A stretch of DNA of 64,000 nt from Pseudomonadota bacterium (GCA_005776725.1 SXOO01000203.1:2658-66657), one strand, 5' to 3'. Positions 4,201 through 60,697 are shown, counted from the first letter of the stretch. Numbers and translations: made by a program. Notes: a model not told the origin generated them from the sequence alone.

Positions 4201-7023
4201 CAGCGCGTGGACGCGGTACGCGCGGGCCCGATCCGACTCACGCTGCCGGAGCTCCCGGGTTATGAGCTCACGATCCCAACGGGCACCGTGGTCACCTTCC
4301 CGGACGGCAGCCACGAGGGCTACGTCTCGCTCACGCAGGTCAACAACGACCAGGCGCCGATGCCGCCGGTGAACGGCCTCGCGCCCCGGGTGTTGGTCAC
4401 GATCCAGCCCGCCGGCACCCGCTTCGAACCGCCCGCGCCGCTGACGCTGCCCAATACGGAGGGTCACTCGCGTGGGCGAAAGGTCGAGCTTGTCTCGTTC
4501 GACCACGACCTCGAAGCGTTCGTTCCGGTAGGGACGGGCACGGTCTCCGAGGACGGCTCGTTGATCCGCAGCGATCCCGGCGTGGGCGTGTTGAAGGGCG
4601 GATGGCACGGCGGATCGACGCCCGGCGGGCAAGGCAACGCCGCCACCATCACCGCCAAGCTGACGAACAACGGTCAAAAGCTCACGTCGGTGTCGCTCGA
4701 GGGCACGGGGCAGCCGGGCGCAGACACCAGCTGGCAGTTCTGCGCTTCGGGCTCCATCACGGTGGGCAACGCGGCGTGCCCGAACAAGACCTCGTGCCCC
4801 ACGTCCGCGAAGGCGGCCAGCGGGCTCAGCGGCTTCGGCGTGGTGAAGGTGGTGCACAAAGACACCCGGGGGAACCAGGCGCAAGACTATCAGCTGGTCA
4901 CGGTGTGCCCCCTCCCACCGGTCACGCTCAAGACGGCGCACAAGATCAACGGGGACTTCTTCACCAAGTTCGTCGAGCGCGCCGGCAAGGTCACCCAGCG
5001 CCTCGGGTGCAAACCCGCCGCCACATACAAGTTCAACACGGCGGCCGACGCCACAGTCGGCTGCTGCGGCAGCTGCCCAGGCATCACGGCGAAGAACTTC
5101 AACCTCTCGCTCGACGCGGAGGCCTCGATGTCGCTCAAGTGCAGCGTGCCCGGCGCCTCGATCCCACCGATCGAGATCCCGGGGGTGGCCACCGTGGAGG
5201 TGGGGCTCTCGGTCACCGCGAAGCTCGTCGGGGCGGCGGGTGTCTCCGTGGCGGTGGACAACTGTAGACAGCCGGCAGACATCCAGCCGAAGGGCAACGC
5301 GAACGTGAAGCTGGCGATCCAGGTGGACGCCACGCTCGCGAGCGTGAAGTTGGGCAAGAAGCAAGTCGCCAACGTGACGGGCTCGGCCGAGTCCAGCGTG
5401 ACTGGGACGCTCGAGCTGCAGCGCAAGGAGTTCCAGGCCAAGGTGTGCTGGGACGGGGTCACGCTCAAGGGCAAGGTCGTGTTCCTCGACTTCACCCTCG
5501 TGGACTACAAGAAGGTGCTGTTCTGCCCCCAGACCGTCTGGGAGACCGTGATCCCGTTCACGCCGCCCGCGGGCCTCGTGGGTGGCACGGGATGTCCCAA
5601 CGGCGCCTTGCCGCCCCTGGTGGACCCGCCCTGCGGCAAGCCGATCACCTTCCCTGACCCGAACGCGCCGCTCCCCCCGGTGAACACCGGCTCCACGAAG
5701 AACGCCTGCGGCGCCGGCTGCGATTCGAGCGCAACGGGGGGCTGCACCTCGGACGCGGAGTGCGACAACGGCAACGTCTGCGACGGCCTCGAGACGTGCA
5801 GCGTGGCCAAGGCGTGCGAGAAGGGGACGCCGCTCGTCTGCGAGCCCGACCAACACGCGTGTACCACCGTGGCGTGCGACCCCATCGATGGTTGCGTGCA
5901 ACAGGCCGACGACACGGCGTGTAACGACTCCCTGGACTGTACGACCGACCGCTGCGACCTCGTGGTCGGCTGCACCCGCGAGGAGGACGACTCGCGCTGC
6001 AACGACGGCGTGGCTTGTACGATCGACCGCTGCAACAAGGCCCGGCCCGCCCCAGGGACTGGCTGCGAGGTGGAGTTCGACGACCAGGAGTGCACCGACG
6101 GCGTCTCGTGCACCGATGACTTCTGCGACCCCTTCGACGGCTGCAGGAGCACACCGAACCTCCAGAAGTGTGCGGACGACGGGGTCCCGTGCACCGAGAC
6201 GCGGTGCGATCTCGTCCGCGACTGCCAGGACGAGCCACGCGACACCTTCTGTGACGACGGCTTCGCGTGCACGGTCGATCGCTGCGACCCCACGGAGGGG
6301 TGCGTCTTCCAACCGCAAGACAGCGCGTGCAACGACGCGCTCGAATGTACGACCGACGTGTGCGTCCCCGGCGAGGGCTGCATCTACACGGCGGACGACA
6401 CCCTTTGCGACGATGGCGTGGACTGCACCCTTACCCAGTGCAATCCGCTGACGGGCTGCGACACCGAGCTGGATCCGACGCGCTGCGCAGACGGCCTCGA
6501 GTGCACCGAGGAGCGTTGCGATCCGGTCAAGGGCTGTGTGCTCACGCCGAACGACGCGGCCTGCGACGACGGAGAGCCTTGCACGAACGACGCCTGCGAG
6601 CCGACCGCGGGGTGTACCCACACGCCCGACGACGGCCTCTGCGACGACGGGGATCCAAACACGGTCGACCGCTGCGCCCCGCCGTGCGTGAGCGAGGGCG
6701 AGCCGGGCGGCGGGGGCACGGTGGGATGCGCCGGCTGCCCCGCGGGCTCCACCGACTGCTGCTGCAGCGACGACGACTGTCCGGGCGACGGGATCGCGCG
6801 CTGCGAAGCCGGCCAGGTGGTGCGGCACACGTGTGAGGGCGGGAGCTGCGTCAAGACGGTGCCGGGCTGCGAGGCGTTCGAGTCGGCGGGCCCCCCGTCG
6901 TGCGCCTCCCTCACGCAACCCGTGGCCTTCACCTGCAGCGGCGCGGTGTGCACCGTGGCGCCCTTACCCGCGTGCCCTCCGGGAACCAGCTGCAAGAGCG
7001 GTCAGTGCGGAGGCACCCCGTGA
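1210..7023 (+). CDS. Giant exported lipoprotein (1937 aa) with an acidic EDVP-repeat tether, Cys-rich repeats, Ig-like domains and a CarboxypepD_reg-like domain
   Basis: ATG at 1210. Signal peptide plus lipobox AVLLVAC. Acidic D/E/P/V region at about 1300-1880. CDDGDxC-type repeats at 1888-2200. About 11 repeats of D..C.D...CT.D.C....GC at 5740-6700. VSGLILDEDQAPVAGVTLSTEDG..GRFLLP resembles CarboxypepD_reg. High GC3 throughout the frame. Confidence 0.85.
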   Translation: MEPLCRRSLGPAVWSAVAVLLVACAEPPASAGIEAADPGPSPDAAQLDASVDVGADALPSPDDAATSVDADVPEQDVPPAEDTAAAPDVPKDDVPPNDASTDVPAGDVPTEDVPTEDVPAEDVPAEDVPTEDVLLEDVSADVPEEDVSPEDASTDDVTTEDVPLHEVTPEDVIAEDVTADDVATEDVHSDEDVTPGDEDATPGDDTTDPQDITEDTGGPEDVGPTAFCTADAECDDGDACNGAERCVDGAACARGPAPACDDQNPCTADTCLAASGCKYTPLLTACDDGDPCTAGDTCAAGHCAGVARTCDDGDGCTHDSCGPGGCTHAPVEELPALNLVAPEDGAVVKGPVALAVVVTGPARGAPRLLDSGLGLPLDAVLVDAGPHELAATVTACNGTVVTSSRRFVVDPLPPSCRATLSPPPNAAGWSNTPTTVTFEAEDDGAGLETVSEPVVVTAPGETVVTGTAVDRAGHETTASATVRMDVHAPLVVLSGPKPNQPANDQWVSQDSSVTLTGTIGDEAPGVSAAGFSRAVAFSSRDTTRVDLAPGPFTVTFALREGVNTLTVAAMDHAGNAGLASLMVVRDAEPPRVAIQTPTGPVSGPTVDVAGLAHDLVVGSITAEDVTVTVNGVSATVLDGRFFAAGVPVSAGETTLTAVATDAVGLTATAAVTVPVVPSALELVSGGGQTGAPKLPLDAPVVFRVTTPPLEGREVTVAITDNDGALAAGPAGTLVALGPEGRRALLRTDAQGLCSVTWTLGSRAGAGVNRLSATAGSLGSQVALASANAGPPANLYATSGDNAVGTPGEPLPMPLSVLATDTHGNGVAGAVVRFEVSRGDGRFADGVVATALTNDKGVAHAVFVPGDALGSGAQAVRATVLGFDSSTALGAEFSVSTLARNPGETTRVSGLILDEDQAPVAGVTLSTEDGSQKTQSDGDGRFLLPTPPGFVRLTVDGRTAQRPAVDERFPVMTLDLNLVEGALNPIERPIYLLRLAAGQRVDAVRAGPIRLTLPELPGYELTIPTGTVVTFPDGSHEGYVSLTQVNNDQAPMPPVNGLAPRVLVTIQPAGTRFEPPAPLTLPNTEGHSRGRKVELVSFDHDLEAFVPVGTGTVSEDGSLIRSDPGVGVLKGGWHGGSTPGGQGNAATITAKLTNNGQKLTSVSLEGTGQPGADTSWQFCASGSITVGNAACPNKTSCPTSAKAASGLSGFGVVKVVHKDTRGNQAQDYQLVTVCPLPPVTLKTAHKINGDFFTKFVERAGKVTQRLGCKPAATYKFNTAADATVGCCGSCPGITAKNFNLSLDAEASMSLKCSVPGASIPPIEIPGVATVEVGLSVTAKLVGAAGVSVAVDNCRQPADIQPKGNANVKLAIQVDATLASVKLGKKQVANVTGSAESSVTGTLELQRKEFQAKVCWDGVTLKGKVVFLDFTLVDYKKVLFCPQTVWETVIPFTPPAGLVGGTGCPNGALPPLVDPPCGKPITFPDPNAPLPPVNTGSTKNACGAGCDSSATGGCTSDAECDNGNVCDGLETCSVAKACEKGTPLVCEPDQHACTTVACDPIDGCVQQADDTACNDSLDCTTDRCDLVVGCTREEDDSRCNDGVACTIDRCNKARPAPGTGCEVEFDDQECTDGVSCTDDFCDPFDGCRSTPNLQKCADDGVPCTETRCDLVRDCQDEPRDTFCDDGFACTVDRCDPTEGCVFQPQDSACNDALECTTDVCVPGEGCIYTADDTLCDDGVDCTLTQCNPLTGCDTELDPTRCADGLECTEERCDPVKGCVLTPNDAACDDGEPCTNDACEPTAGCTHTPDDGLCDDGDPNTVDRCAPPCVSEGEPGGGGTVGCAGCPAGSTDCCCSDDDCPGDGIARCEAGQVVRHTCEGGSCVKTVPGCEAFESAGPPSCASLTQPVAFTCSGAVCTVAPLPACPPGTSCKSGQCGGTP
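1540..1629 (+). repeat. Tandem 15-bp coding repeat (GAGGACGTGCCARCC, about 6 copies) encoding EDVP(T/A)
   Basis: Read directly. Copies start at 1540, 1555, 1570 and 1585 (near-identical), then 1600 and 1615 (diverged). The array sits inside a longer degenerate acidic repeat. Confidence 0.8.
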
Positions 7024-47838: not shown

Positions 47839-49110
47839 ATGATGCGCCGCGTGTCGGAGCACGTTCAGACGCTCATCGTCGGCGCGGGGGTCACGGGCCT
47901 CGCTTACGCCAACTTCGCGCCCAAGGGGACCTGGCTCGTGGTGGACCGGGACACCAGCCCGGGCGGCTACTGCAAGACGGTGGTCCAGGACGGGTTCGTC
48001 TGGGACTACAGCGGTCACTTCTTCCACTTCCGCGAGCCCTGGGTCGAGGCCTGGCTGCGCGAGCGCATGCCGGACGACGAGATCCTCACGGTGGCGAAGG
48101 CCTCCGGGATCCTCGTGCCCACCTCCGAGGGGCTCACGCGCGTGGACTTCCCTTTCCAGAAGAACATCCACCAGCTGCCGCGCGCCGAGTTCATCGAGTG
48201 CCTCCACGACCTCTACTTCGCGGACCGCTCGGCCCCCGTGAGGTCCTTCGGGGACCTGCTCCTCGGCCGCTTCGGACGCGGGATCGCCCAGCGCTTCCTG
48301 GTCCCCTACAACGAGAAGCTCTACGCGTGCCCCATGGACTCGCTCGACCCGGACGCGATGGGCCGCTTCTTCCCCCACGCGGACGTGGCCGCGATCATCC
48401 GACACTTCCGGCACCCTGAGAACGGCAGCTACAACGCCAGCTTCACGTACCCGAGGGGCGGCGCGATCCGTTACGTTCACGCGCTGCTGAGGGAGCTCCC
48501 GCCGGAGCGCATCGCGCTGGGTGAGGCGCTGGTCCATGTGGACCCTGTGGCCCGCGTGGCCACCACCACGCGACGAACCGTGCGTTACGACCGCCTCGTG
48601 AGCTCCGCGCCCTTCGACGCGCTGCTCCGCCTCACCGGCACACCGCACGATCCCGCGCTCTACAGCGCGAACGCGGTGCAGGTCTACAACCTCGGCTTCG
48701 ACCGGAAGGGCCAGACCAAGGACCACTGGCTGTACGTTCCCGATCCCGAGATCTCGTTCTACCGCGTGGGCTTCTACGACAACATCTTCGGCGACGATCG
48801 CATGAGCCTCTACATCGAGCTGGGCCAGGCGCGCGGGGCGGAGCGAAAGGCGGAGCTCCCCCGCGTCTTGGAAGATCTGCGCCGCCTCGGCATCGTCACT
48901 GACCAGCGCCTCGTCAGCTCGCACGAGATACTGCTAGACCCCGCGTACGTTCATATCACCACCGCGGGCCGCGCCGACTTCGAGGCCCAGCGCGCGCGCC
49001 TCGAGGCGCAGGACATCATCACCGCGGGCCGTTACGGCGGTTGGACCTATTGCTCGATCGAGGACAACATCCTCGAGGCCCACCGGCTCGCCACCCGCCA
49101 CGCCTCATGA
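47839..49110 (+). CDS. FAD/NAD(P)-binding oxidoreductase (amine-oxidase / UDP-galactopyranose-mutase-like fold)
   Basis: N-terminal Rossmann motif [26 protein letters not shown], then WDYSGHFFH. Confidence 0.85.
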
Positions 49111-50204
49111 CACCGCCGCGCCCGCGAGGGCTCGTCACCCTCCTGCTCATCCTGCTCGTCGGGGTGCTCACGTGGCGCCTCTGGGCGCTGCTCCGCACCA
49201 CCACCTCGGAGCCCCGCGCCGTCACGCAGCGAGGCGACCTGGCGCCCGACGAGCAGGCCACGATCCAGATCTTCAGAGACAACGCCCCCTCCGTGGTGTT
49301 CATCACGTCGGCGCGTATCGCCCGCGACCGCTGGTCCATGCGCCCCCTCGAGATCCCGCAGGGCAGCGGGTCGGGCTTCGTCTGGGATGAGGCTGGGCAC
49401 ATCGTCACCAACTACCACGTGGTCGAGCAGGCCGTGAGCCAGCCCGGCATGACGCTCACGGTCACGCTGCACGACCAGGAGACGTACCCCGCCGAGGTGG
49501 TGGGGGCTGCCCCGCACAAGGACCTGGCGGTGCTCAAGATCGACGCCACGGGCCTTCGGCCGATCCCCATCGGGACCTCCCGGGACCTGGTGGTGGGCCA
49601 GAAGGTGTTCGCGATCGGGAACCCGTTTGGCTTCGACCACACGCTCACGACCGGAGTGATCAGCGGCCTCGGCCGCGAGATCCAGTCGGTCACGAGGCGC
49701 CCCATCACGGGCGTGATCCAGACCGACGCGGCGATCAACCCGGGGACCTCCGGTGGCCCGCTGCTCGACTCCGCCGGGCGGCTGATCGGGGTGAACACCG
49801 CGATCTTCAGCCCCTCGGGCGCCTACGCGGGCCTCGGCTTCGCGGTCCCAGTGGACACGGTGAACCGCATCGTCCCCCAGCTGGTGGCGCACGGACGAGT
49901 GGTCCAGCCGGGCCTCGGCGTACAGCTCTCGGAGGTGCGCACCCGCGTCCCCGGGATCCCGATCGCGGGCGTCAATCCCGGCAGCGCCGCCGAGCGCGCG
50001 GGGTTGCGCGGTTTCACCGAGGACGCGCTCGGCCAGATCCGGGTGGGCGACGTGATCACCGAGGCCCAGGGCCTCCCCGTCTCGAGCCCAGACGATCTCT
50101 ACCGCGCGCTGGACGGCAAGGAGGTTGGCGACGAGATTGTGCTCACCGTCGATCGCGGCGGCTCGGCTTTGTCCGTCAAAGTCACCCTCATGGCGTTGGA
50201 GTAG
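49107..50204 (+). CDS. HtrA/DegP-family serine protease (trypsin-like domain plus PDZ) with an N-terminal TM anchor
   Basis: ATG at 49107 overlaps the upstream TGA (ATGA). Motifs: [19 protein letters not shown] (His), DLAVLKI (Asp), [21 protein letters not shown] (Ser). PDZ-like C-terminus. Confidence 0.9.
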
Positions 50205-50207
50205 GCC

Positions 50208-51140
50208 ATGCTGCGCCTCGTCACTTGGAACGTCCGTTACTTCAGCCACTCGACCCGTGGCATCACCAGCATGGACCACACGCAGCGCGCGATCAGCGCG
50301 GCGATTGCGAGCATGCGCCCCCAGCCGGACGTGGTGGCCCTACAGGAGATCGACGACGCGTCGTTTCGCTCTCTCGCGTTCCGCGCCCGCGGTCGCACGA
50401 AGCGCGGGGAGTCGGTGTCCAACTTCGACCGCTTCTACGACAGCCTCAACCGCCAGAGCCTCGAGATCGGCGGCCACCAGTATCAGGCTCAGTTCTACCC
50501 CGCCCAGGGGCACCGCGGCGGCACCCCGCTCTACTCCACGGGCCTCGCGCTCCTGTGGCGAAGCGGCCTTACGTTGGTCGATCACAACGGCCACGAGCCC
50601 CACGACATCACGCACCGCCGAATCGCGCGCCTCGCGCGCTTCAAGCAGAAGCGCATCTGCGCGTGGGGCCGCTTCAGAGCGCAAAGCGGCGAGGAGGTGG
50701 ACGTGTTCAACACCCACCTGTCCCTCCCGGCGTTCTTCCAGCGCACCAACGGCCCCACGGGCGGGCGCTTCGGCGAGTCGGACAACCAGCTGCGCGAGAT
50801 CGACTCCCTGCTCGAGTTCGTGGCGCAGAACGGCCAGCTCGACCGCACCCTCCTGGTCGGCGACTTCAACGCGCTGCCGGGCTCCCGCGTCTACAACCGG
50901 GTGACCAGCACGTTCCGCGACGCCCACGCCACCTTCCTCGGCGCCCCACCCGCCCGCATGGTCGAGCTGCCGTCCGCGGGCTTCATGAACCTCAGGTACC
51001 GCCTGGACCACGTCTTCTCGGGGCCCGCGCTGCGCTTCCACGACTTCCAGGACACGGCGCCTTACGGCCCCGCCCATCCGTGGGCCCCGCTCTCGGATCA
51101 CGCGCCGCTGGTCGGGCGCTTCAGCGTGGCCGCTCCTTGA
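50208..51140 (+). CDS. Endonuclease/exonuclease/phosphatase (EEP) family protein
   Basis: ATG lies 3 nt after the upstream TAG, with GGAG upstream. Motifs: LVTWNVRYF, VVALQEID, NTHLS, LVGDFNALPGS, LDHVF, SDHAPLVGRF. Confidence 0.9.
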   Translation: MLRLVTWNVRYFSHSTRGITSMDHTQRAISAAIASMRPQPDVVALQEIDDASFRSLAFRARGRTKRGESVSNFDRFYDSLNRQSLEIGGHQYQAQFYPAQGHRGGTPLYSTGLALLWRSGLTLVDHNGHEPHDITHRRIARLARFKQKRICAWGRFRAQSGEEVDVFNTHLSLPAFFQRTNGPTGGRFGESDNQLREIDSLLEFVAQNGQLDRTLLVGDFNALPGSRVYNRVTSTFRDAHATFLGAPPARMVELPSAGFMNLRYRLDHVFSGPALRFHDFQDTAPYGPAHPWAPLSDHAPLVGRFSVAAP

Positions 51141-52240
51141 CCTCCCCCCTCGAGCTGCGTGTCCTCGACGGCGGCTCCAGGGTCGTGTTCTCCGGCCCGC
51201 TCGACAAAGAGACCGTCCCCGACGTCCAGGGCGCGCTCCTCGCGCTGGCGCCCCGACCGGGCACGCTCACGATGGAGCTCGCCGGGGTCACCCGCATCGA
51301 CTCGGCCGGCGTCGCGTTCCTCGGGGTGGTCGAGGCGCGGCGGAGAGGCGCGGGCGGCCAGCTTCAGCTCGTACAGCTCTCCGACGCCGCCCGCGACGCC
51401 CTCGAGGTGTTCCGGCTGGCTGAAGAACGTCCTGCCAAGGGCCCGTCGCGGGGGCTGTTCGAGCGGCTCGGGGACGGCGGCTACGAGGTCGGCAAGGGCA
51501 TTACCGCGTTCCTCCAGCTCACGGCCGACACGGTGCTCTGGAGCATCGGCGGTGCCGCGCGGACACGGCGGGTCCGCAAGGGCGCCATGACGCTCGAGGC
51601 CATCCGAATGGGCGTGGACGCGCTCCCGATCGTGGCGCTCATCGCCCTGCTCATCGGCGTGGTCCTCGCGCTCCAGTCGGCCTACCAGCTCCGGCAGTTC
51701 GGCGGAAGCATCTACGTCGCCAACCTCATCGCGGTCTCCATGACGCGCGAGATGGGGCCGCTGATCACGGCGATCATCCTCGCGGGTCGCAGCGGCGCGG
51801 CGATCGCCGCCGAGGTGGCCACGATGAACGTCAGCGAGGAGACGTCGGCGCTCCGCGTCATGGGCCTCGAGCCGGTCCGTTACGTGGTGGTTCCCAAGTT
51901 CCAAGCGCTGACGCTGACCATGCCGGCGCTCACTGTTTACGCGAACGTGGTTGGGATCCTGGGAGGGTCCGTCGTCGCGTGGGCCTACCTCGACATCGGG
52001 CCGCTCATCTACCTCCGGCAGTCGTGGGGCGCGCTCGTCCTGCTCGACATCGGGACGGGGCTCCTCAAGAGCGTGGTCTTCGCCTGGATCATCGTGCTCG
52101 TCGGCGCGCACTGCGGCTTCTCGGCCCACGGCGGCGCCGAGAGCGTTGGGCGCGTCACCACGCAGTCCGTGGTTCGCAGCATCTTCTGGGTGATCGTGGC
52201 GGACGCGGCGTTCAGCCTCCTCTTCTACTTCGGCGACTGA
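51137..52240 (+). CDS. mlaE: MlaE-family ABC permease with a fused N-terminal STAS domain
   Basis: The only in-frame start is TTG at 51137, overlapping the upstream TGA (TTGA). STAS-like: LTMELAGVTRIDSAGVAFLGVVE..LQLVQLSDAARDALEVF. MlaE-like: IVALIALLIGVVLALQSAYQLRQFG..VANLIAVSMTREMGPLITAIILAGRSGAA. The track ORF from 50225 is out of frame over the EEP gene. Confidence 0.85.
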   Translation: MTSPLELRVLDGGSRVVFSGPLDKETVPDVQGALLALAPRPGTLTMELAGVTRIDSAGVAFLGVVEARRRGAGGQLQLVQLSDAARDALEVFRLAEERPAKGPSRGLFERLGDGGYEVGKGITAFLQLTADTVLWSIGGAARTRRVRKGAMTLEAIRMGVDALPIVALIALLIGVVLALQSAYQLRQFGGSIYVANLIAVSMTREMGPLITAIILAGRSGAAIAAEVATMNVSEETSALRVMGLEPVRYVVVPKFQALTLTMPALTVYANVVGILGGSVVAWAYLDIGPLIYLRQSWGALVLLDIGTGLLKSVVFAWIIVLVGAHCGFSAHGGAESVGRVTTQSVVRSIFWVIVADAAFSLLFYFGD

Positions 52241-52253
52241 GCAACCGTCTTGT

Positions 52254-52517
52254 TCAGGTTTCTGGGGCAGCCGGCGCCGCCGCGTCGGCGGCCGTTCTCA
52301 TCGTGGCGTTGAGGTGGATGAGCCGCTTCCTCATGACCGCCACGAGCGCGACCTTCTTGAGCTTGCCGCTTGCGACGAGACGGGCGTAGAAGGCCCTCAG
52401 GTGGCCGAGCTCCGAGACCTCGGCGATGAGCACGGCGGCGCTGAGGGCGCCCACACCGTCCACTGCGGTCAGGGCCTCGAACCTCGGAAGGCGCGACCTG
52501 CACTCGCCGCTAGCCCC
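52254..52517 (-). mobile_element. IS110-family transposase gene remnant (C-terminal pieces only, with an internal deletion)
   Basis: The translation LTAVDGVGALSAAVLIAEVSELGHL (helix-hairpin-helix part) is joined directly to RAFYARLVASGKLKKVALVAVMRKRLIHLNATMR (the typical IS110 C-terminus). The N-terminal DEDD/RuvC-like domain and about 60-80 aa between the two pieces are absent. An upstream in-frame stop lies at 52518-20. Confidence 0.6.
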
Positions 52518-52623
52518 CTACCGCCCGGCGTCCGCCTCAAGCGGACGGCCGGCCGGCCAGCCACGGCGCAACGCCAACTGCTCTGGGGACTGCAACGCAA
52601 CAGAGCGCGAGCCGCGATTCCCC

Positions 52624-52980
52624 GTGCGCGTCACCGTCCAGATCTACAAAGCCACCAGCAACGGCGTGTTGGCGAAGGCCGACGTGGCGTCCATCAAGGC
52701 CCAGGTGAAACGCGTCTACAAAGAGGCGGACTACGTCGGGAGCCTCGTCACGCAGGGCTGCACCGGCCGGCCAACGGAGTGGGAGGGCGACCACCGCGAG
52801 CCGGCCGACTTCTGGCAGGTCTTCTGGCAGCACTTCGAGGCCGACACGGGCCTCACGCCCGAAGAGACGATGCGGCTCCTCGAAGAGCGCGTCACGACCG
52901 GCTGGCGCACCGGCGAGGGGCCCTCGCGAACGGCGGCGTCCCCGCTGGCTTGCCTTCCCCAGCCTCTCCTGAGCCTCTGA
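52624..52980 (+). CDS. Hypothetical protein or gene fragment (start uncertain)
   Basis: The coding-like part of track ORF 52426..52980 (RVTVQIYKATSNGVLAKADVASIKAQVKRVYKEADY..). GTG at 52624 is one possible start. No family recognised. It may be a truncated gene next to the IS remnant. Confidence 0.25.
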   Translation: MRVTVQIYKATSNGVLAKADVASIKAQVKRVYKEADYVGSLVTQGCTGRPTEWEGDHREPADFWQVFWQHFEADTGLTPEETMRLLEERVTTGWRTGEGPSRTAASPLACLPQPLLSL

Positions 52981-53106
52981 GCCGTTCACGACTCATTCGA
53001 CGACCAGGGCTCCGGCTGAAGCCGGCAACGCCAGCGCTCGGGCTGGCAGCTCGGGGTCGTTTCGCAGATTGGTAGAGCTCGCCTCAGTCGCCGTTAGGTT
53101 CCCAGG

Positions 53107-53142
53107 TTGACGACGGGACGCCATTGCCGTACATGCCGTACA
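53107..53142 (+). promoter_or_regulatory. Sigma70-like promoter with a tandem GCCGTACA operator-like repeat upstream of the TA module
   Basis: TTGACG (53107-12), 17-nt spacer, TACATG (53130-35). GCCGTACA at 53126-33 and 53135-42. AAGGAGG at 53146-52. ATG at 53158. Confidence 0.4.
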
Positions 53143-53157
53143 GGCAAGGAGGTTTCA

Positions 53158-53397
53158 ATGCCAGCCGCAGCCCGACTCGAACTTCGAATAGCACCGGCCG
53201 AGAAGCGTTTGATCGAAGAGGCCGCCGCCGCTCGACAACAATCGGTGACGGCGTTTGTCATCGAGACTGCCGTGCGGCGCTCGCGCGACGTCCTCGGTGG
53301 TCGTGAGCCTGCCACGCCGCGCCCGATCGGCGGCTGGTCGTTCACTCTCCTCGATGGATGGGACGATCCCCTCGCCGACTTCGAGACGTGGCGGTGA
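53158..53397 (+). CDS. DUF1778/TacA-like ribbon-helix-helix type II antitoxin (79 aa)
   Basis: ATG at 53158 follows AAGGAGG. ARLELRIAPAEKRLIEEAAAARQQSVTAFVIETAVRRSRDVL matches the DUF1778 pattern. Confidence 0.8.
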   Translation: MPAAARLELRIAPAEKRLIEEAAAARQQSVTAFVIETAVRRSRDVLGGREPATPRPIGGWSFTLLDGWDDPLADFETWR

Positions 53398-53798
53398 CAC
53401 TCCTCATCGATAGCCACATCCTGATGTGGGCGGCGATCGCCGACCCACGACTTCGCGGCCCCGTGCTCGACGCATTCGTCGATCCCAACAACTTGCTGCT
53501 CGTCAGCGCGGCGACACTCTGGGAGCTCGGGTTGAAGCATGGCCTCGGGAAGTTGCCACTCCCCGTGTCTGCGCGTGACTTCTTCGCCCGCGAGATCGCG
53601 ACGCGCGGCTATCGTGTCCTCGACGTTCAGCGTGCGCATGCCGAGCGCGCCAGCGAGCTACCCTACGTCGATCCGGCGCATCGCGATCCTTTCGACCGGA
53701 TGCTCATCGCCCAGGCACTGGTGGAGGGAGTGCCGCTGCTCACTGCCGATGCGCGCTTCAAGGCCTACGTTGGTCTTGGGTTGCGGCTGGTTGGATAG
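53394..53798 (+). CDS. vapC: PIN-domain type II toxin, VapC family (134 aa)
   Basis: GTG at 53394 overlaps the antitoxin TGA (GTGA). Motifs: LLIDSHILMW (Asp), SAATLWELGLK (Glu), HRDPFDRMLIAQA (Asp), LLTADARF (Asp). All four acidic residues are present. Confidence 0.85.
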   Translation: MTLLIDSHILMWAAIADPRLRGPVLDAFVDPNNLLLVSAATLWELGLKHGLGKLPLPVSARDFFAREIATRGYRVLDVQRAHAERASELPYVDPAHRDPFDRMLIAQALVEGVPLLTADARFKAYVGLGLRLVG

Positions 53799-54021
53799 CA
53801 GAAACGCCGCCCCGGCTTTGGGCCACGCCGGGCCGATCCAGCTGGTCATTGTCGCGCTTCCCGGCAAGTCGGACTTTTGGGCCTCGTAGAGATTGGTCAT
53901 CCCGACGCCCTCATGCGCACCTGGGCCGAACGCGCCCTGTTCTGTTCGCGGCGCACGGCTCGGCCCAGTCTCAACTTCTCGGAGCGGACATATCGCGGCC
54001 TCGAACCCGCGCTCAAAAGGC

Positions 54022-57000
54022 TCAGTTGAGGAGAGCCACCTCGAGCGTGTAGGCGCCCTGCTCGGAGGCGTTGTACGAGTCGACGATGATGGTCACCGTC
54101 TCACCGGCCGAGAGGGACACGACCACAGGCGGAAGCGCACCGTAATGGTCGACGCCCGCGAGGCAGGCCGACGCATCGGTCGAGCAAGCGGACAACACCG
54201 AGACCAGGCTCGGGAGGTTGGAGCCGTCCACGTAGACGAGCCCGATCGAGTAGTCGCCGGTCTCTGGGGCCGTGAACGTGTAGACGATGTCGTTGCCGCC
54301 GTCGCCCACGCCGAAGGAGAGCTCTCCGGGGCCGACGCACTGTATGAAGTCGTCGAAGTAGCCCGGCTGGGTGTTGTCTCCCTGCACGCTGATCGGGAGC
54401 TCGCCCTCGAGGACCAGCGCGTTCGCGCAGAGGTCGCCGAGCGCGGGCTCCGCGCACACGCCGTTGGAGCACTGCAGCCCGTCCGCGCACCCGCAGGTGC
54501 CGCCGCAGCTATCCGAGCCGCCGCAGGTCCCTTCCGTGCAAGTGGCCGCGCACGGGGGCAGCACCTCGAGCGTGAACGCGCCCTCGGTGTCGCTCAGGTA
54601 GGCGTCCACCACGATGAACACCTCCTGGCCCTCCACGAGGTCCACGAACACCTCCGCGTTGAGGCCGCTCGTGGTGATAGGTCCCGCCGCGAGGCACGCG
54701 CCGTTCACGTCGGTGCAGCTGGTGGAGACCGAGATGACCGGCGCGAAGTCCGCCGTGACACGGATCGGGAAACGACCCGCGGATGGGGCGACGAAACTAT
54801 AAGTCTGGTCTGCGCTCCCGAGGCCCGCTGAGGTGGAGGCGCACGCACCGAAGAAGTACCGGGCCGTGTCGAACTTGCCCACCGTGGTCCCTGTGGTGAC
54901 GAAGGGCAGCTCACCCACCGGCATCGGCTCGAGGCAGCTGTCGCCGGGCCCAAGCGGCGCGGGCGGCGAGATCGTGAGCGTGTAGGGCCCCGCTGGCTCG
55001 GCCGGATAGTAGCTGTCTACGACGTAGTAGACCGTCTCGCCGGCCGTGAGCGCCGTCCCGAGGACGTTGGCGGCGCCGAAGTTGTAAGCGCCGCCGAGGC
55101 ACTGGATCTCCGGGGATTCGCAAGAGCGCGTGAGCGTCAAGACGGACGAGGAGGTGGTGTCGAGCGTGGCCGTGTAGAACCCCGACTCCTGCACCTCGAA
55201 GGCGTAGACGTGGTCGCTCCCGCCCAGCCCGTACGTCCCTTGCAGCCCGCAAGCATTCGACACCGAGAACTGGTCGCCGCTGCCAAGGGTGGTGTTCGTG
55301 ACCGCGACGGGCAGCGCGCCGGCGTCTAGCACGAAGGGCTCTGCGCACGACTCGCCCTCTCCGAGTGGCTCGCAGAGGGATCCACCCGCGCACTTCTCGC
55401 CATCGCTACACCCACAGGTGCCGCCGCAGCCGTCGGCGCCCCCGCAGAGCCCCGCCTCGCACGTTGGAGCGCAGCAGGTCACACCGAAGTGGAAACCACC
55501 GACCACTGGTGTGAACGCGGTGTAGGTGTCGAAGACCAGAAAGTAGTTGCCGCCGGCCTTGGCCGGGAAGGTCAGAGTGCCGTAGCCCGCCTTGATACAG
55601 TTGGCACCCGCGTCGATGCAGCCCTCGCCCAGGTCCTCTAGGACGACGAGCTGGAGCGTTGCGGCGTTCACTGTGGCGATAGTCACGATCTGCTCGGTCT
55701 CGGCCGTGAACGCCCACGCGACCTCGGCGCTCTGCGAGAAGTTGTCGCTGATGTAGGGCTGGCACGAGTACTTCGAGAACGCCGCGGTCACACCGGCTAC
55801 GCTGTTGGACAAGAACGTGAGCTCGGACCCGCAGGTCACCGAGTCGAGCGGCTCGCACGCGTCGCTCGGGAGCGACTCCTCGCACTTGCCCGCCGAGCAG
55901 AACCCTTGGGCGCAGTTACCACAGGACCCTCCGCACCCGTCGTCGCCGCAGGTCTTGCCGTCGCAGGAGGGCGCACAGCACAGAACGGCCATATCGAAGG
56001 ACGGGACCACCGGCGTGGCTGTGTCGGCCGAGTCCAAGATCAGGAAGTAGCTGGTGTCTGCTTTGGCCAAGAACTTGGTGGTGCCGGACGCGCTGTGAAC
56101 GCACGACGCCTCCGTGTCCGCGCAGCCGTTGCCCTCGTCCTCAAGCACGATGAGATCCAGCGGGCCCTCGTCAGCGAGGCCGATGGAGACCTGCTGCTCG
56201 ACCTCGGAGTAGAAGGTGAACACGGCCTCGGGGCTCTTGGAGTAGTCGTCGCTGTTGAACTGCTGGCAGCTGTAGTTCGAGAAGGCCATCACGGCGCCCG
56301 TCATGGTGTTGGACAGACCCGAGTAGCCCACGCCGCAAGAGACCGGCTGAATCGGAGCACAGCTCCCGGGCAGCTCGACGCAGGTCGCGTCCTGGCAGAA
56401 GCCGGTGTCACAGGTGCCACACGTGAAGCCGCAGCCATCATCGCCGCACTCGTTGTCGGCCGGACAATTGGGGAGGCACGGCTCGCCCACCTCGAGCTCA
56501 TACTCACCCACGTCGGTGGAGTAGTCCCCGTCCACGACCACGAGGAGCGTCTCGCCGGCCTCGAGCTTCACGTCCAGCGACCCACCGCCCGAAGCGAAAG
56601 CGCTGCCTTCGCACTGGTCGCCGGCGCAGTCGGTCTGAGCGTAGAGCAGCGCGAACCAGCTGGCTGTGAGGGTGAACGTGTAGACGCCCGCCTTCGGGGC
56701 CTCGAAGCGCCACGCCTCGTCCGGCGCCGGGAGGCCGTCGAAACCATCGAAGCCGCCGTCGAAGCCATCGAAGCTGTCGAGGCCGTCGACGACCCCGTCG
56801 AAGCCCCCGGTGCAGTCTTCGTAGTTGGACACCCCGCCCGTGGTGTCGCTGGAGACCGGGACGCCGATCTCCAGCGCCCCTTCGACGACGCAAGGCTCGT
56901 CGCCGTCCGTTGCGTCCGCGGTGCCGTCAGTCCCGTCGGTCGCGTCGGCCGTGCCGTCGCTGCCCTCGGTCGAGTCGGCCGTGCCGTCCGTGGCGTCAGT

Positions 57001-57354
57001 GCTGTCCCCCGTGCTGTCCCCCGTGCCGTCGGTGCTGTCCGCGGTGCCATCGGTGCCATCGGTAGCGTCGGTGGCGCTCGAGCCGTCGCTGCCGTCGGTG
57101 AGGTCTGTGGCGTCGGTGGCGTCGGTGGCGTCCGGGGCGTCTGTGACGTCCTCGGCGTCGCTCCCATCCCGGGCGTCGCCGGCCTCCGTCGCGTCGGAGG
57201 CATCTGTGGCGTCGGAGCCGTCGGCCGCCTCGCTGGCGTCAGCCCCCGAGGTGTCTTCGGCGGTCCCATCCTGCCCAGAGCCGTCTCCGCTGGTGCCCGC
57301 TGTCGAGCACGCCGCGACCACCGCAAGACAGAACCCCCACACCACGCGTCGCAT
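54022..57354 (-). CDS. Exported lipoprotein (about 1110 aa) with a D/T/G/S acidic tether followed by six PPC-like beta-sandwich modules separated by CGxDGCGGxCGxC motifs
   Basis: ATG at 57354 has GAGG 5 nt upstream (alternative GTG starts at 57360 and 57369). Lipobox AVVAAC. DATDATDATDLTDGSDG.. region at 56904-57306. Each module ends ..GxYxLxV/I. Cys motifs lie near 54480-54545, 55400-55470, 55910-55975 and 56400-56470. Confidence 0.85.
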   Translation of the reverse strand: MRRVVWGFCLAVVAACSTAGTSGDGSGQDGTAEDTSGADASEAADGSDATDASDATEAGDARDGSDAEDVTDAPDATDATDATDLTDGSDGSSATDATDGTDGTADSTDGTGDSTGDSTDATDGTADSTEGSDGTADATDGTDGTADATDGDEPCVVEGALEIGVPVSSDTTGGVSNYEDCTGGFDGVVDGLDSFDGFDGGFDGFDGLPAPDEAWRFEAPKAGVYTFTLTASWFALLYAQTDCAGDQCEGSAFASGGGSLDVKLEAGETLLVVVDGDYSTDVGEYELEVGEPCLPNCPADNECGDDGCGFTCGTCDTGFCQDATCVELPGSCAPIQPVSCGVGYSGLSNTMTGAVMAFSNYSCQQFNSDDYSKSPEAVFTFYSEVEQQVSIGLADEGPLDLIVLEDEGNGCADTEASCVHSASGTTKFLAKADTSYFLILDSADTATPVVPSFDMAVLCCAPSCDGKTCGDDGCGGSCGNCAQGFCSAGKCEESLPSDACEPLDSVTCGSELTFLSNSVAGVTAAFSKYSCQPYISDNFSQSAEVAWAFTAETEQIVTIATVNAATLQLVVLEDLGEGCIDAGANCIKAGYGTLTFPAKAGGNYFLVFDTYTAFTPVVGGFHFGVTCCAPTCEAGLCGGADGCGGTCGCSDGEKCAGGSLCEPLGEGESCAEPFVLDAGALPVAVTNTTLGSGDQFSVSNACGLQGTYGLGGSDHVYAFEVQESGFYTATLDTTSSSVLTLTRSCESPEIQCLGGAYNFGAANVLGTALTAGETVYYVVDSYYPAEPAGPYTLTISPPAPLGPGDSCLEPMPVGELPFVTTGTTVGKFDTARYFFGACASTSAGLGSADQTYSFVAPSAGRFPIRVTADFAPVISVSTSCTDVNGACLAAGPITTSGLNAEVFVDLVEGQEVFIVVDAYLSDTEGAFTLEVLPPCAATCTEGTCGGSDSCGGTCGCADGLQCSNGVCAEPALGDLCANALVLEGELPISVQGDNTQPGYFDDFIQCVGPGELSFGVGDGGNDIVYTFTAPETGDYSIGLVYVDGSNLPSLVSVLSACSTDASACLAGVDHYGALPPVVVSLSAGETVTIIVDSYNASEQGAYTLEVALLN
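56904..57306 (-). repeat. Low-complexity coding repeat (D-[ATGS]-[TS]-D/G units)
   Basis: Plus-strand runs of gtcggtggcgtc / gccgtcggt-type units, encoding the acidic tether of the lipoprotein. Confidence 0.6.
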
Positions 57355-57503
57355 ACGCACCTCGAACACAAGAAGGGTAGCTGGGGCAGCGCGTGCCCCG
57401 TCGGGTGCGTCTCCGCTCGCGCTCGGACGGGCCCGGGTCGGCGGTGGGGGTGTCCCCTCCGCCTAAGACGCAGCTCGCATCGAGACGACGTCAGCGCGGG
57501 ACG

Positions 57504-58814
57504 CTACCACGGCGTCCGTCCTGCGTTCGACCAGAACCGGGGGGAATCGTCTCCGTCAGCCACCGGCGAGCTTCGGCGTGCTCCCGCAAGGACGGCGACC
57601 GCTACGACGAGAGCGCCGAACCACGCGACGCCGCTCACGGGTCGATGGACCCCTGCGCATCCCGCGGCCGCGCCAGTCGCGCTCGGGGTCTCGGACCCCG
57701 TCTCGCTCGGCGGTTCGGCGCTCTCACCCCCCGCATCCCACGGGAGCTCCGGGGGCGCCACTGCGGGCCCGAAGCACGCGTCACGCTGCCCGGGGCAGTT
57801 GGCCAGGGCGCAGGCCGCGTCGTCCAGCCGGTCGCAGTAGGCCAAGAGACACCGGTCGAGCGAGTCGAAGAGCCCCTGCCCTTCGCTGGTCCCACGCGCA
57901 TGGCACGCCGCGAGGCAGGCGGTGTCCCGCCCCGCTGCCTGACACTCCCCCGCGCAGCAGCCCGCAGCGCACGCGACGAGCGCGGGGCAGTCGAGCACCG
58001 CGCACCGCGCGTCGTCGCAGACACCCGCCTCGCAGGCCTCTGGGCAGCGGCACACGCTCGGCTCGACTCGGCAGTCGGGGCGCTCGAGCCCCGACTCGGC
58101 CGCGATCCAGGCCATCGCCGGGTCCACGCGCGTGACGATCGCAGCCTCGCGGCAGGGGTCGCAGCCCTCGCCCCCCACGACGCAGCCCGCGACGGCCTCG
58201 TTGACGCCGATGATCAGCCCGTCTCGAAGCGCGGGCCCGCCGGAGTCGCCGAAGCAGACGCCGCCGGTAGCGGGCTCGCTCACGAAGGTTCGGTCGCCCA
58301 CGTAAGCGACGCGCATGGTGCCGCTGCGCTTCAACCCGGCGTCCGGGGGATCAACGCCGGACGTGGCTCCGAAGCCGACGTGCACCACCTCTTCGCCCAC
58401 CAGATCCACTCCCAGCTGCGCGCGATTGAGCGGCAGAGGCTCGAGCCCGCTGGGCTCTGCCAGCTCCACGAGGCCGAGGTCGTTCTGAGCTCCGAGGGGG
58501 GCGTACTCTGGGTGGATCACGAAGCGGAGCACCGCGAGCGGCGTCTCGGCGGCCGCTCCCACGCCCACGAACACCCCCTCGGGGCTCGGGGAAAACCCAC
58601 CGCCGCCCTCGGGGCCTGCGGGGACGAGGCAATGCGCCGCCGTGAGCACCCAGGTGGGGGCGATCAGCGCGCCCGTGCAGAAGACGCCGATGGGCTCGGC
58701 CACCAGGGCGACCACCGCGGGGTGACTGCCTGTGGGGACCTGCTCGCCGTCGACGATCGCGCCCTCCCGGTGGCCGAGAGCCGTCAGCAGTAGGGCGGCA
58801 GCGAGAGAGACCAC
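57504..58814 (-). CDS. Secreted S1 (chymotrypsin/trypsin-family) serine protease with a Cys-rich C-terminal domain and a MYXO-CTERM-like membrane tail
   Basis: GTG at 58814 has GGAG 6 nt upstream (alternative TTG at 58856 has no SD). Motifs: AIVDGEQV (IVGG-type N-terminus), LTAAHC (His), NDLGLVEL (Asp), GDSGGP (Ser). Tail: GCAGV..WFGALVVAVAVLAGARR. The remainder of the 674-aa track ORF is antisense to mlaF. Confidence 0.8.
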   Translation of the reverse strand: MVSLAAALLLTALGHREGAIVDGEQVPTGSHPAVVALVAEPIGVFCTGALIAPTWVLTAAHCLVPAGPEGGGGFSPSPEGVFVGVGAAAETPLAVLRFVIHPEYAPLGAQNDLGLVELAEPSGLEPLPLNRAQLGVDLVGEEVVHVGFGATSGVDPPDAGLKRSGTMRVAYVGDRTFVSEPATGGVCFGDSGGPALRDGLIIGVNEAVAGCVVGGEGCDPCREAAIVTRVDPAMAWIAAESGLERPDCRVEPSVCRCPEACEAGVCDDARCAVLDCPALVACAAGCCAGECQAAGRDTACLAACHARGTSEGQGLFDSLDRCLLAYCDRLDDAACALANCPGQRDACFGPAVAPPELPWDAGGESAEPPSETGSETPSATGAAAGCAGVHRPVSGVAWFGALVVAVAVLAGARRSSPVADGDDSPRFWSNAGRTPW

Positions 58815-58865
58815 GCGCTTCTCCGAGACTTTGCGGGGACGCGGGCGCTGGGGCAAAGTGCCCGC

Positions 58866-59651
58866 GTGCCCGACTACGTCATCGAGACCGACGACCTCGC
58901 CGCTGGGTATGGCGGCCCGCTCATTCTCGACGGGGTCTCGGCGCGAATCCAGCGGGGCTGCATCACCTGCATCATCGGTGGCTCCGGCTGCGGCAAGTCC
59001 ACGTTTCTGAAGTCGGTCTTCGGCCTCCTGCCACCACTCCGCGGCTCGGTGCGCCTCTTGGGCCACGACCTCTACGCCGTGGAGGAGCACGCCCGGGCCG
59101 AGATCCTCGCCCGCGCCGGCCTCATGTTTCAGTACGGTGCCCTCTTGGGGAGCCTCAGCCTCGTGGAGAACCTCGCGATCCCGCTTGTCGGCCACACCCG
59201 GCTGGATCCTGCCGTGATCGACGAGGCCATCGCCATGAAGCTGAGCCTCGTCTACCTCTCCCACGCGCTGGACAAGCTGCCCAGCGAGCTCTCCGGCGGG
59301 ATGAGGAAACGCGCCGGGCTGGCCCGGGCCATCATGCTCGACCCGGAGCTGGTCATGTGTGACGAGCCCACCGCGGGTCTCGACCCCAACACGGCCGCCG
59401 AGATCGACCACCTCATCCTGAAGCTCCGCAGGGTGCTCGGCATGACGGTGGTGGTGGTGACCCACGAGCTCTCGTCGATCGAGGTGATCGCAGACCGCAT
59501 CCTCATGTTCAAAGCGGGCAAGCTGCACTTCGACGGCACCCTGGCCGAGGCCAAGGCCTCGCCGGATCCTTCGCTGGTCGGCTTCTTCTCGCGCGCTGAC
59601 GAGACCGTGGCGCGACCCGGACGGTCTCTACTCGATCGGGTGGCGGCGTGA
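58866..59651 (+). CDS. mlaF: ABC transporter ATP-binding protein, MlaF-like
   Basis: GTG at 58866. Walker A GGSGCGKST, signature LSGGMRKRAGLARA, Walker B LVMCDEPTAGLD. Confidence 0.9.
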   Translation: MPDYVIETDDLAAGYGGPLILDGVSARIQRGCITCIIGGSGCGKSTFLKSVFGLLPPLRGSVRLLGHDLYAVEEHARAEILARAGLMFQYGALLGSLSLVENLAIPLVGHTRLDPAVIDEAIAMKLSLVYLSHALDKLPSELSGGMRKRAGLARAIMLDPELVMCDEPTAGLDPNTAAEIDHLILKLRRVLGMTVVVVTHELSSIEVIADRILMFKAGKLHFDGTLAEAKASPDPSLVGFFSRADETVARPGRSLLDRVAA

Positions 59652-60697
59652 GCCAGGCCACCCGCGCACAGAAGCTGCGGCTCGGGATCTTCCTCGGGGT
59701 CTCGGGAGCGATCCTGGGCGGCACGCTGATCACCATGGTGGGCCTCGCCGCCATCGAGAAGCGCGACGAGTACCCGATCCGCTTCGACGGGAGCGTCGCG
59801 GGGCTCTCCCCCGGCTCGCCGGTGCGCTACAACGGCATCGACGTGGGCCGAGTGGAGCGGGTGGCCATCGACCCGAAGAAGCCCTCGGGCGTGCTCGTCA
59901 TCATGAGCCTCGTCGAGGGCACGCCGATCCGCACGGACACCGTCGCGGTCCTCAACATGCAGGGCATCACCGGGCTCAAGTTCATCGAGCTGCAAGGCGG
60001 CCGAGACGACGCCGCGATCATAACGCCCGGCACCGACGTGAAGTCGTCCCGCTCCACGGTGGACCTCCTCACCGACAAGGCCACCTCCATCGCCACCAAG
60101 GTGGAGACGGTGCTCGACAACCTCACCGCCCTCACCAGCGGCGACAACGCGAAGTCCATCAGCGGCATCCTCGCCAACGTCGACAACATCTCCGGAACGA
60201 TCGCGAAGATCCTGGCCGACAACAGCGAGGTGGTCACCGGCCTCGTCGAGGACGCCCGGGCCATCGTGGGCGACATCCGCGCGTTCGTGGCCGACGCCAA
60301 GACGTCTCTCGGCACGCTCCGCGACGCGGCGGACACGGCGGCAAAGTGGATCGACCCCGCAGACGTCAAGGGTACACTCGGGCGCCTTCAGGGCACCCTC
60401 GCGCGCCTGGAGCTAACGCTCGGGGTGTTCGACGAGACGGTGCGCACCGCGAAGGCGCGACTGTCCACCGCCGAGCTGGGCGCCCTGCTCAGCTCGGTCA
60501 ACGGGCTCGCGATCTCCTCCACCGACCTCGTGAAGCGCGCCGACTCCACGCTTGTCCGCGCCCGGGAAGACCTCTTCCGCGCGCTGGAGGCCGTCATCGA
60601 AGGCGCCGACAGCTTCTCCGAGCTCGCGAATACGCTCCGCGACGACCCGGCATCCATGATCCGCGGCAAGGGCGGCGATCGCGAGGTACCCGAATGA
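59648..60697 (+). CDS. mlaD: MlaD/MCE-domain substrate-binding protein with a long helical C-terminus
   Basis: GTG at 59648 overlaps the upstream TGA (GTGA). N-terminal TM helix. MCE core FDGSVAGLSPGSPVRYNGIDVGRVERVAID..MQGITGLKFIELQGG. Confidence 0.9.
   Translation: MSQATRAQKLRLGIFLGVSGAILGGTLITMVGLAAIEKRDEYPIRFDGSVAGLSPGSPVRYNGIDVGRVERVAIDPKKPSGVLVIMSLVEGTPIRTDTVAVLNMQGITGLKFIELQGGRDDAAIITPGTDVKSSRSTVDLLTDKATSIATKVETVLDNLTALTSGDNAKSISGILANVDNISGTIAKILADNSEVVTGLVEDARAIVGDIRAFVADAKTSLGTLRDAADTAAKWIDPADVKGTLGRLQGTLARLELTLGVFDETVRTAKARLSTAELGALLSSVNGLAISSTDLVKRADSTLVRAREDLFRALEAVIEGADSFSELANTLRDDPASMIRGKGGDREVPE

Follow-up and report, generated by a model that had tools for sequence, protein, structure and literature searches.

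A 6.6-kb gap between mlaE and mlaF in an uncultured myxobacterium, probably filled stepwise as a mosaic

Gene content of the split Mla-type locus

The DNA analysed here is a window of 64,000 nucleotides from contig C194 of a Myxococcota metagenome-assembled genome (MAG), which is 69% guanine plus cytosine (GC), 73% complete, and has 'Myxococcales bacterium' MAGs as its nearest named relatives. The window carries an Mla-type transporter, in which a gap of ~6.6 kb (52241-58865) parts the stop codon of the permease gene mlaE from the start codon of the ATPase gene mlaF. The original prediction had described this gap as an insertion splitting a tightly coupled operon, with mlaE ending at 52240 and mlaF starting at 58866. 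Both positions were borne out, as was its inventory of the gap, namely an IS110 remnant, a gene fragment, a toxin-antitoxin (TA) pair, and minus-strand genes for a PPC-like lipoprotein and an S1 protease. Coding frames were plainly marked by codon-position GC across the window. The features of the region, with the source of each assignment, were as follows.

47839-49110, plus strand: FAD/NAD amine-oxidase-like gene (Pfam)
49107-50204, plus strand: HtrA-type protease with a PDZ domain (Pfam)
50208-51140, plus strand: endonuclease/exonuclease/phosphatase-family (EEP) gene (Pfam)
51137-52240, plus strand: STAS-MlaE fusion permease, an MlaB-like STAS domain plus MlaE (Pfam MlaE and STAS_2)
52237-52517, minus strand: 3' remnant of an IS110-family transposase gene, open reading frame (ORF) at 52254-52517 (NCBIfam NF033542)
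~52588-52980, plus strand: C-terminal fragment of a secreted-protein gene, 5'-truncated, ~130 aa (tblastn)
53158-53397 and 53394-53798, plus strand: type II TA pair, TacA/DUF1778-type antitoxin and PIN-domain toxin, respectively (Pfam)
53849-53986, intergenic, between the PIN gene and the lipoprotein gene: dispersed repeat of ~140 bp (copies in the same genome)
54022-57354, minus strand: lipoprotein of 1110 aa (lipobox, ~140-aa tether, six PPC-fold modules)
57504-58856 (or 58814), minus strand: secreted S1 (trypsin-family) protease with a Cys-rich C-terminal region (Pfam Trypsin)
58866-59651, plus strand: MlaF-type ATP-binding cassette (ABC) ATPase (Pfam ABC_tran)
59648-60697, plus strand: MlaD (Pfam)
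60694-61404, plus strand: ABC_trans_aux lipoprotein, aux (Pfam)
61404-62939, plus strand: 511-aa outer-membrane-protein (OMP)-like protein, conserved, with no confident Pfam family
62936-63481, plus strand: RNA methyltransferase (Pfam)

The domains of mlaE and mlaF were both intact. Both genes were of full length, the permease also when compared to its orthologues. In the permease, the MlaE domain (PF02405) was matched with E = 4.3e-71 over profile positions 6-211 of 212, and the STAS_2 domain at the N-terminus with E = 2.3e-11; the corresponding Pfam values were 3.6e-25 for ABC_tran in MlaF and 2.8e-16 for MlaD. The STAS-MlaE gene was the final member of the upstream co-directional run, and mlaF headed the downstream run mlaF-mlaD-aux-OMP-like-RNA methyltransferase. 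Outside the gap, the junctions were as tightly coupled as predicted: all seven consisted of a stop/start overlap of 1-4 nt or a gap of 3 nt. They were ATGA at 49107, a 3-nt gap at 50208, and TTGA at 51137 upstream, and GTGA at 59648, ATGA at 60694, TGATG at 61404, and GTGA at 62936 downstream. MlaC and MlaA had no Pfam match among the genes of 47.8-63.5 kb, the rest of the genome not being searched.

Order of mlaE and mlaF in related genomes

The class was surveyed in 107 genomes. A STAS-MlaE orthologue was present in 54 of them and an MlaF orthologue in 55, and 52 pairs were located on one contig. In 48 of these 52 pairs, mlaE and mlaF were separated by 11-136 nt. The four split pairs were those of this genome (6628 nt), of G013 (4126 nt), and of G068 and G069 (2640 nt and 2056 nt), the last two belonging to one genus (g46). 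Moreover, mlaE and mlaF were adjacent in other Myxococcota MAGs and in KSB1, Cloacimonadota, Calditrichota, and Fidelibacterota, and the order mlaF-mlaD-aux-OMP was the same in all Myxococcota relatives examined. With 48 of 52 class pairs adjacent, and those of other phyla as well, the adjacency is ancestral and the split clearly derived, in agreement with the original prediction.

A split private to this species was not supported, since mlaE and mlaF were not neighbours in the two same-genus genomes, G001 and G002, either, and were flanked there by other genes. The MlaF orthologues of G001 and G002 were 74-80% identical to that of the window, and in both genomes mlaF-mlaD-aux-OMP was preceded by a divergent gene for a sigma-54-dependent activator instead of mlaE. 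No mlaE was found in G001. In G002, the genome MAG_44, mlaE was followed by a co-directional FG-GAP/ASPIC lipoprotein gene (L031:198-1934), which begins directly where mlaE stops, and then by two minus-strand genes. The genome under study has its own orthologue of the sigma-54-dependent activator on contig C236, in an unrelated context; as for the other G001/G002 neighbours, the FG-GAP protein and a 352-aa DUF protein had only distant matches in it (30-42% identical), and YkgJ had none. Homology to G002 ended exactly at the mlaE stop codon, and upstream of mlaF only ~25 nt could still be aligned with G001 and G002. The adjacency of mlaE and mlaF may have been lost before this species arose, or more than once in the genus.

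Each genome had different material in or beside the break; in G013, the gap holds opposite-strand genes for a Lon protease and for MoaA. Judged by these gene orders, three or four lineages of the class (this genus, g46, and G013) opened the junction independently of each other, which is mildly unusual. In genus g46, the gap (L006:827-3400 and L007:1095-2966) was seen to hold co-directional lipoprotein/secreted-protein genes of no known family.

The upstream run was also compared. In this genome (47839-52240), the FAD-oxidase, HtrA, and EEP genes overlap each other and mlaE. No match to the FAD-oxidase, HtrA, or EEP gene was found beside mlaE, within up to 10 kb upstream of it, at the other Myxococcota loci or in G002, and this half of the presumed operon is best described as a lineage-specific assembly. 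The part of the 'tightly coupled operon' upstream of mlaE was not kept with mlaE in any relative examined.

Mobile remnants at the left edge of the gap, and the TA pair

The ORF at 52254-52517 matched NCBIfam NF033542 with E = 1e-6, covering profile positions 308-341 of 343 plus another short stretch. Its 87-aa product is internally deleted and retains a helix-hairpin-helix piece and the extreme C-terminus. A Pfam search of this stub returned no domain, the DEDD/RuvC-like catalytic domain and Transposase_20 both being unmatched, and it is classed here as an inactive remnant rather than an intact insertion sequence (IS). Bases 52237-52403 form a multi-copy repeat starting at the last bases of mlaE, with copies in the same genome on C55 (167 bp) and C225 (101 bp), both 97% identical, on C50 (93%), and on C165 (77%). 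The same IS110 3' end was found just past the stop codons of other genes, e.g., moaA on C165. The left border of the gap had been placed exactly at the mlaE stop codon, and this is where the multi-copy IS110 3' end begins.

The ~140-bp repeat at 53849-53986 has no recognisable coding potential, and copies of it were located at C59:31213-31351 (89% identical) and C115:33509-33587 (92% identical). One Logan contig ended 26 bp past the mlaE stop codon and one began at 53903, within the 140-bp repeat. These breaks in short-read Logan contigs, one at the IS stub and one in the 140-bp repeat, provide independent evidence that both are repeated in the genome.

Elements of the RNA-guided IS110 family are not known to have terminal inverted repeats or target duplications, and none were found here either. 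The stub resembles the family in the C-terminal end of its transposase, but differs in being only 87 aa long, with the DEDD catalytic domain and the upstream non-coding region gone.

In a tblastn search, the fragment at 52588-52980 aligned over 130 aa with the terminal part of a long open frame on C54 (61% identity), and it was 71% identical to a second fragment on C114; it had no Pfam or NCBIfam match. At the DNA level, 52629-52759 was 89% identical to the C114 fragment (C114:66909-67039), compared to 75% for the longer paralogue (C54:1680-1967). The C114 fragment directly adjoins a two-gene cassette resembling a nucleotidyltransferase/HEPN-type TA pair. The fragment of the window may mark the border of a small repeated unit moving with various TA cassettes.

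In the TA pair, the antitoxin matched TacA1 (E = 4.5e-11) and the toxin matched PIN (E = 7.5e-13; both Pfam), and the two genes overlap by 4 nt at 53394-53397. With a small upstream antitoxin and an overlapping toxin gene with a recognised domain, 53158-53798 is assigned to the type II TA modules. Like TacAT (DUF1778 antitoxin and GNAT toxin) and VapBC (PIN toxin), it is an overlapping two-gene cassette, here of a TacA1-type antitoxin and a PIN toxin; however, the usual partner of the TacA antitoxin family is a GNAT toxin, and the pairing with PIN is a hybrid one. The GC content at third codon positions (GC3) was 0.69 and 0.77 in the TA genes, the lowest in the region, compared to 0.86-0.89 in the two large genes of the gap and 0.90-0.93 in the flanking genes. 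This low GC3 is taken to mark the TA cassette as the most recently acquired piece.

The PPC-fold lipoprotein and the S1 protease

The whole lipoprotein had no match in Pfam or NCBIfam. A blastp comparison of the protein with itself showed no repeats, and the modules were therefore cut by hand and then aligned. The ~140-aa tether is acidic and rich in D, T, G, and A, the six modules are of 130-140 aa each, and Cys-rich connectors are present at four of the five module boundaries. One of the six modules reached Pfam PPC (PF04151), weakly (E = 0.0016), the other five being below Pfam detection, and the module profile weakly matched the ColG tandem collagen-binding domain (CBD) 5IKU (E = 0.002). 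In the AlphaFold model of the lipoprotein (pLDDT 77, pTM 0.77), the best Foldseek matches were the PPC and ColG-CBD structures 5SV5 and 1NQJ, with E of ~1e-4 and target-normalised TM of 0.75-0.78. Based on this model, the label 'PPC-like' given in the original prediction is justified at the level of a predicted fold, the PPC/collagen-binding-domain beta-sandwich. The protein thus resembles PPC domains and the CBDs of clostridial collagenases in predicted module fold and in weak sequence matches; it differs from them in that its six modules, arranged in tandem and with Cys-rich connectors, make up a lipoprotein of their own that lacks a catalytic domain.

Full-length orthologues of the lipoprotein, 53% identical, were present in both G001 and G002. 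They sit at another locus, which is syntenic between those two genomes and adjoins a block syntenic to C212:19.8-26.4 kb of the genome under study, where the block runs on into other genes without a lipoprotein gene. The lipoprotein gene is probably a gene of the genus that moved within the lineage, and not foreign cargo. Contig C212 also bears a second Mla-like set at 2713-5688 (MlaE- and MlaF-like paralogues, ~37-39% identical), ~15-20 kb from the lipoprotein-neighbour block; that the two share a contig is probably a coincidence.

The Trypsin domain of the protease was matched with E = 1.3e-23 (Pfam). The protease gene is divergent from mlaF, and its start had been predicted to lie 9-51 nt from that of mlaF; the candidates are indeed TTG at 58856 (9 nt) and GTG at 58814 (51 nt). 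No orthologue of the protease was found in the genus or the family, and the best matches, 41-45% identical, came from other families and from a paralogue on C246 of the same genome. These homologues and the C246 paralogue are built alike: the S1 domain is combined with Cys-rich helical repeats, frequently with Cys-rich metal-binding-like repeats as well, and with a hydrophobic tail at the C-terminus. Fission of a protease-PPC fusion was considered and rejected, since PPC modules were found in none of the protease homologues nor in the C246 paralogue. Furthermore, the lipoprotein orthologues of G001 and G002 have no protease neighbour. The earlier suggestion that the PPC modules had been detached from the adjoining protease was thus not upheld, and the adjacency of the protease and lipoprotein genes looks incidental.

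A stepwise history of the gap

The history that we favour, with a probability of roughly 0.7, is that an ancestral cluster of five genes, STAS-mlaE, mlaF, mlaD, aux, and the OMP-like gene, was broken in the short mlaE-mlaF spacer, and that the break was filled stepwise as a mosaic and not by a single island. An IS110-family element would have landed directly past the mlaE stop codon, its later decay leaving a 3' stub. Debris would have gathered beside this stub, namely the 5'-truncated gene fragment, the compositionally foreign TacA-PIN cassette, and the small dispersed repeat. Two genes for envelope proteins, both native in composition, would then have come between the debris and mlaF, one of them for the PPC-fold lipoprotein, relocated from another chromosomal locus, and the other for the lineage-specific S1 protease. 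We infer the order of these events and any role of the IS in the later insertions, as well as a new promoter: mlaE would now be the last gene of the upstream unit, the permease and the ATPase would be made from separate transcripts, and transcription of mlaF-mlaD-aux-OMP would start from a promoter within or adjoining the 5' end of the divergent protease gene. Since two opposite-strand genes lie directly upstream of mlaF, a promoter of its own is very probably needed, and mlaF very probably uses the one predicted inside or beside the 5' end of the protease gene. Since mlaE and mlaF are both intact, the split transporter probably still works.

Several points weigh against this history. No full-length copy of the IS110 element was present in the 73%-complete assembly. 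In G001 and G002, mlaE-mlaF adjacency is also missing and the neighbours are different, and the break could thus predate the IS insertion, with the IS stub as a later passenger. No outgroup polarises the move of the lipoprotein gene, which may have entered the mla locus here or left it in the lineage of G001 and G002, and a single genome does not reveal the order of events. A consensus scan of 52000-59200 for sigma-70 promoters and intrinsic terminators returned nothing; such a scan is uninformative for a myxobacterium of 69% GC.

In this uncultured myxobacterium, mobile debris and local rearrangement have disrupted and eroded an operon in an ordinary way, and the case is one of routine genome plasticity. 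The locus would nevertheless provide a well-bounded natural example of an ABC lipid transporter whose permease and ATPase have become transcriptionally uncoupled with both genes intact. It also calls for caution in annotation, as the TA pair and the genes for the protease and the PPC lipoprotein would wrongly be linked to Mla function if function were inferred from the operon.

Alternative readings of the gap

The protease and lipoprotein genes could have been recruited to a place next to mlaF, with the shared divergent control region of 9-51 nt co-regulating them with the transporter. The divergent starts are indeed merely 9-51 nt apart, two other lineages and G002 also carry lipoprotein/secreted-protein genes at the junction, and all these products are envelope proteins. 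However, the cargo of the junction is unrelated between lineages, that of G013 being Lon and MoaA on the opposite strand, and the protease-lipoprotein pair was not kept as neighbours anywhere else examined. We regard this functional placement as unlikely.

A slightly less likely variant is that the spacer is a recurrent, tolerated landing site which captures envelope genes, with the protease and lipoprotein genes sharing divergent control with mlaF. The cargo consists of lipoprotein/secreted-protein genes in this genus and in g46, but not in G013. If true, the landing site would couple surface proteolysis or adhesion to outer-membrane lipid transport.

About equally improbable is the reading closest to the original prediction, in which the IS, the TA module, and the protease and lipoprotein genes all arrived in a single event, on one 6.6-kb island gained by horizontal transfer and inserted between mlaE and mlaF. 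The mobile remnants at the left edge, the TA module inside the gap, the lack of a protease orthologue in close relatives, and the ancestral adjacency of the flanks would all suit such an island. The borders and the composition of the gap did not. No target duplications, which the prediction had proposed to look for at 52241 and 58865, and no terminal direct or inverted repeats were detected around these two positions; only low-complexity repeats of the lipoprotein tether and chance pairs were returned. The gap gave no match in tRNA and Rfam scans, and its ORFs had no integrase or recombinase domain in Pfam or NCBIfam.

When composition was ranked in windows of 402 nt against the genome's own best-phase GC distribution, those at 53045-54250, which hold the TA pair and the adjoining non-coding DNA, fell in the 0-8th percentile. 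The windows of the lipoprotein gene were in the 41st-94th percentile, and those over the lipoprotein tether and the protease in the 13th-68th. In codon-position GC, only 53045-54250 was atypical, and the ~4.8 kb (of 6.6 kb) with the two large genes had a native-looking composition. Moreover, the lipoprotein gene is conserved in the genus, its orthologues in G001 and G002 occupying another, syntenic locus, and no copy of the 6.6-kb block was found elsewhere in this genome. With no flanking repeats, integrase, or tRNA, and no distinct composition along its whole length, the gap does not qualify as a discrete genomic island, and the claim of a single insertion was not sustained.

The arrangement was also followed in other assemblies. 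It was present in full on a 244-kb ENA contig from another sample, with 3 mismatches in 15 kb, and the exact MlaF/MlaE proteins were also encoded on three further contigs, a Logan contig of 22.7 kb and two of ~4 kb from other samples. Four independent assemblies were collinear with the window at 99.8-99.99% identity (1-9 mismatches), and the protease-mlaF junction was common to three assemblies besides the 244-kb contig. No empty-site variant was seen among the contigs with the exact MlaE or MlaF proteins. Judged by these contigs, the split arrangement is real and not an assembly artefact. A chimera, in which the repeats at 52237-52403 and 53849-53986 mis-joined unrelated contigs while mlaE and mlaF are truly adjacent, would be conceivable for a MAG with two multi-copy repeats in the gap, at both of which short-read contigs break, but it is highly implausible given the contig from another sample covering the entire arrangement, the three further assemblies with the protease-mlaF junction, the lack of an empty-site contig, and the small chance that a mis-join would leave the operon halves co-oriented and 6.6 kb apart.

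Comparison with known transport systems

In mycobacteria, the Mce1 and Mce4 systems have their substrate-binding proteins and permeases encoded in dedicated operons and share a separately encoded ATPase, MceG (PMC9947336). There, the permease and the ATPase of a system of the MCE/Mla superfamily are not co-transcribed and yet cooperate, as they probably do in the locus described here; the difference is that one ATPase serves several operons in mycobacteria, in an ancient arrangement, whereas a single cognate pair was recently split here, with its genes still 6.6 kb apart. By analogy with MceG as the precedent, the unlinking of permease and ATPase is tolerated in this superfamily, and the present locus would add to the mycobacterial evidence that MCE/Mla systems tolerate unlinked ATPases.

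The locus was further compared with the MlaFEDCB operon of Escherichia coli. Homologous MlaE, MlaF, MlaD, and STAS (MlaB-like) domains are common to both, and the relatives of this genome have mlaE next to mlaF within a single cluster, as does E. coli. However, the order here is E-F-D instead of F-E-D, STAS is fused to MlaE, and no MlaC was detected in 47.8-63.5 kb, the ABC_trans_aux lipoprotein and the 511-aa OMP-like protein being present instead; furthermore, E and F lie 6.6 kb apart with opposite-strand genes between them. The five-gene set was also observed in the permuted order mlaD-aux-OMP-like-STAS-mlaE-mlaF in KSB1, Cloacimonadota, Calditrichota, Fidelibacterota, and Spirochaetota MAGs (L008-L016), and the 511-aa OMP-like protein was a conserved partner of the Mla-type system in several loci of other phyla.

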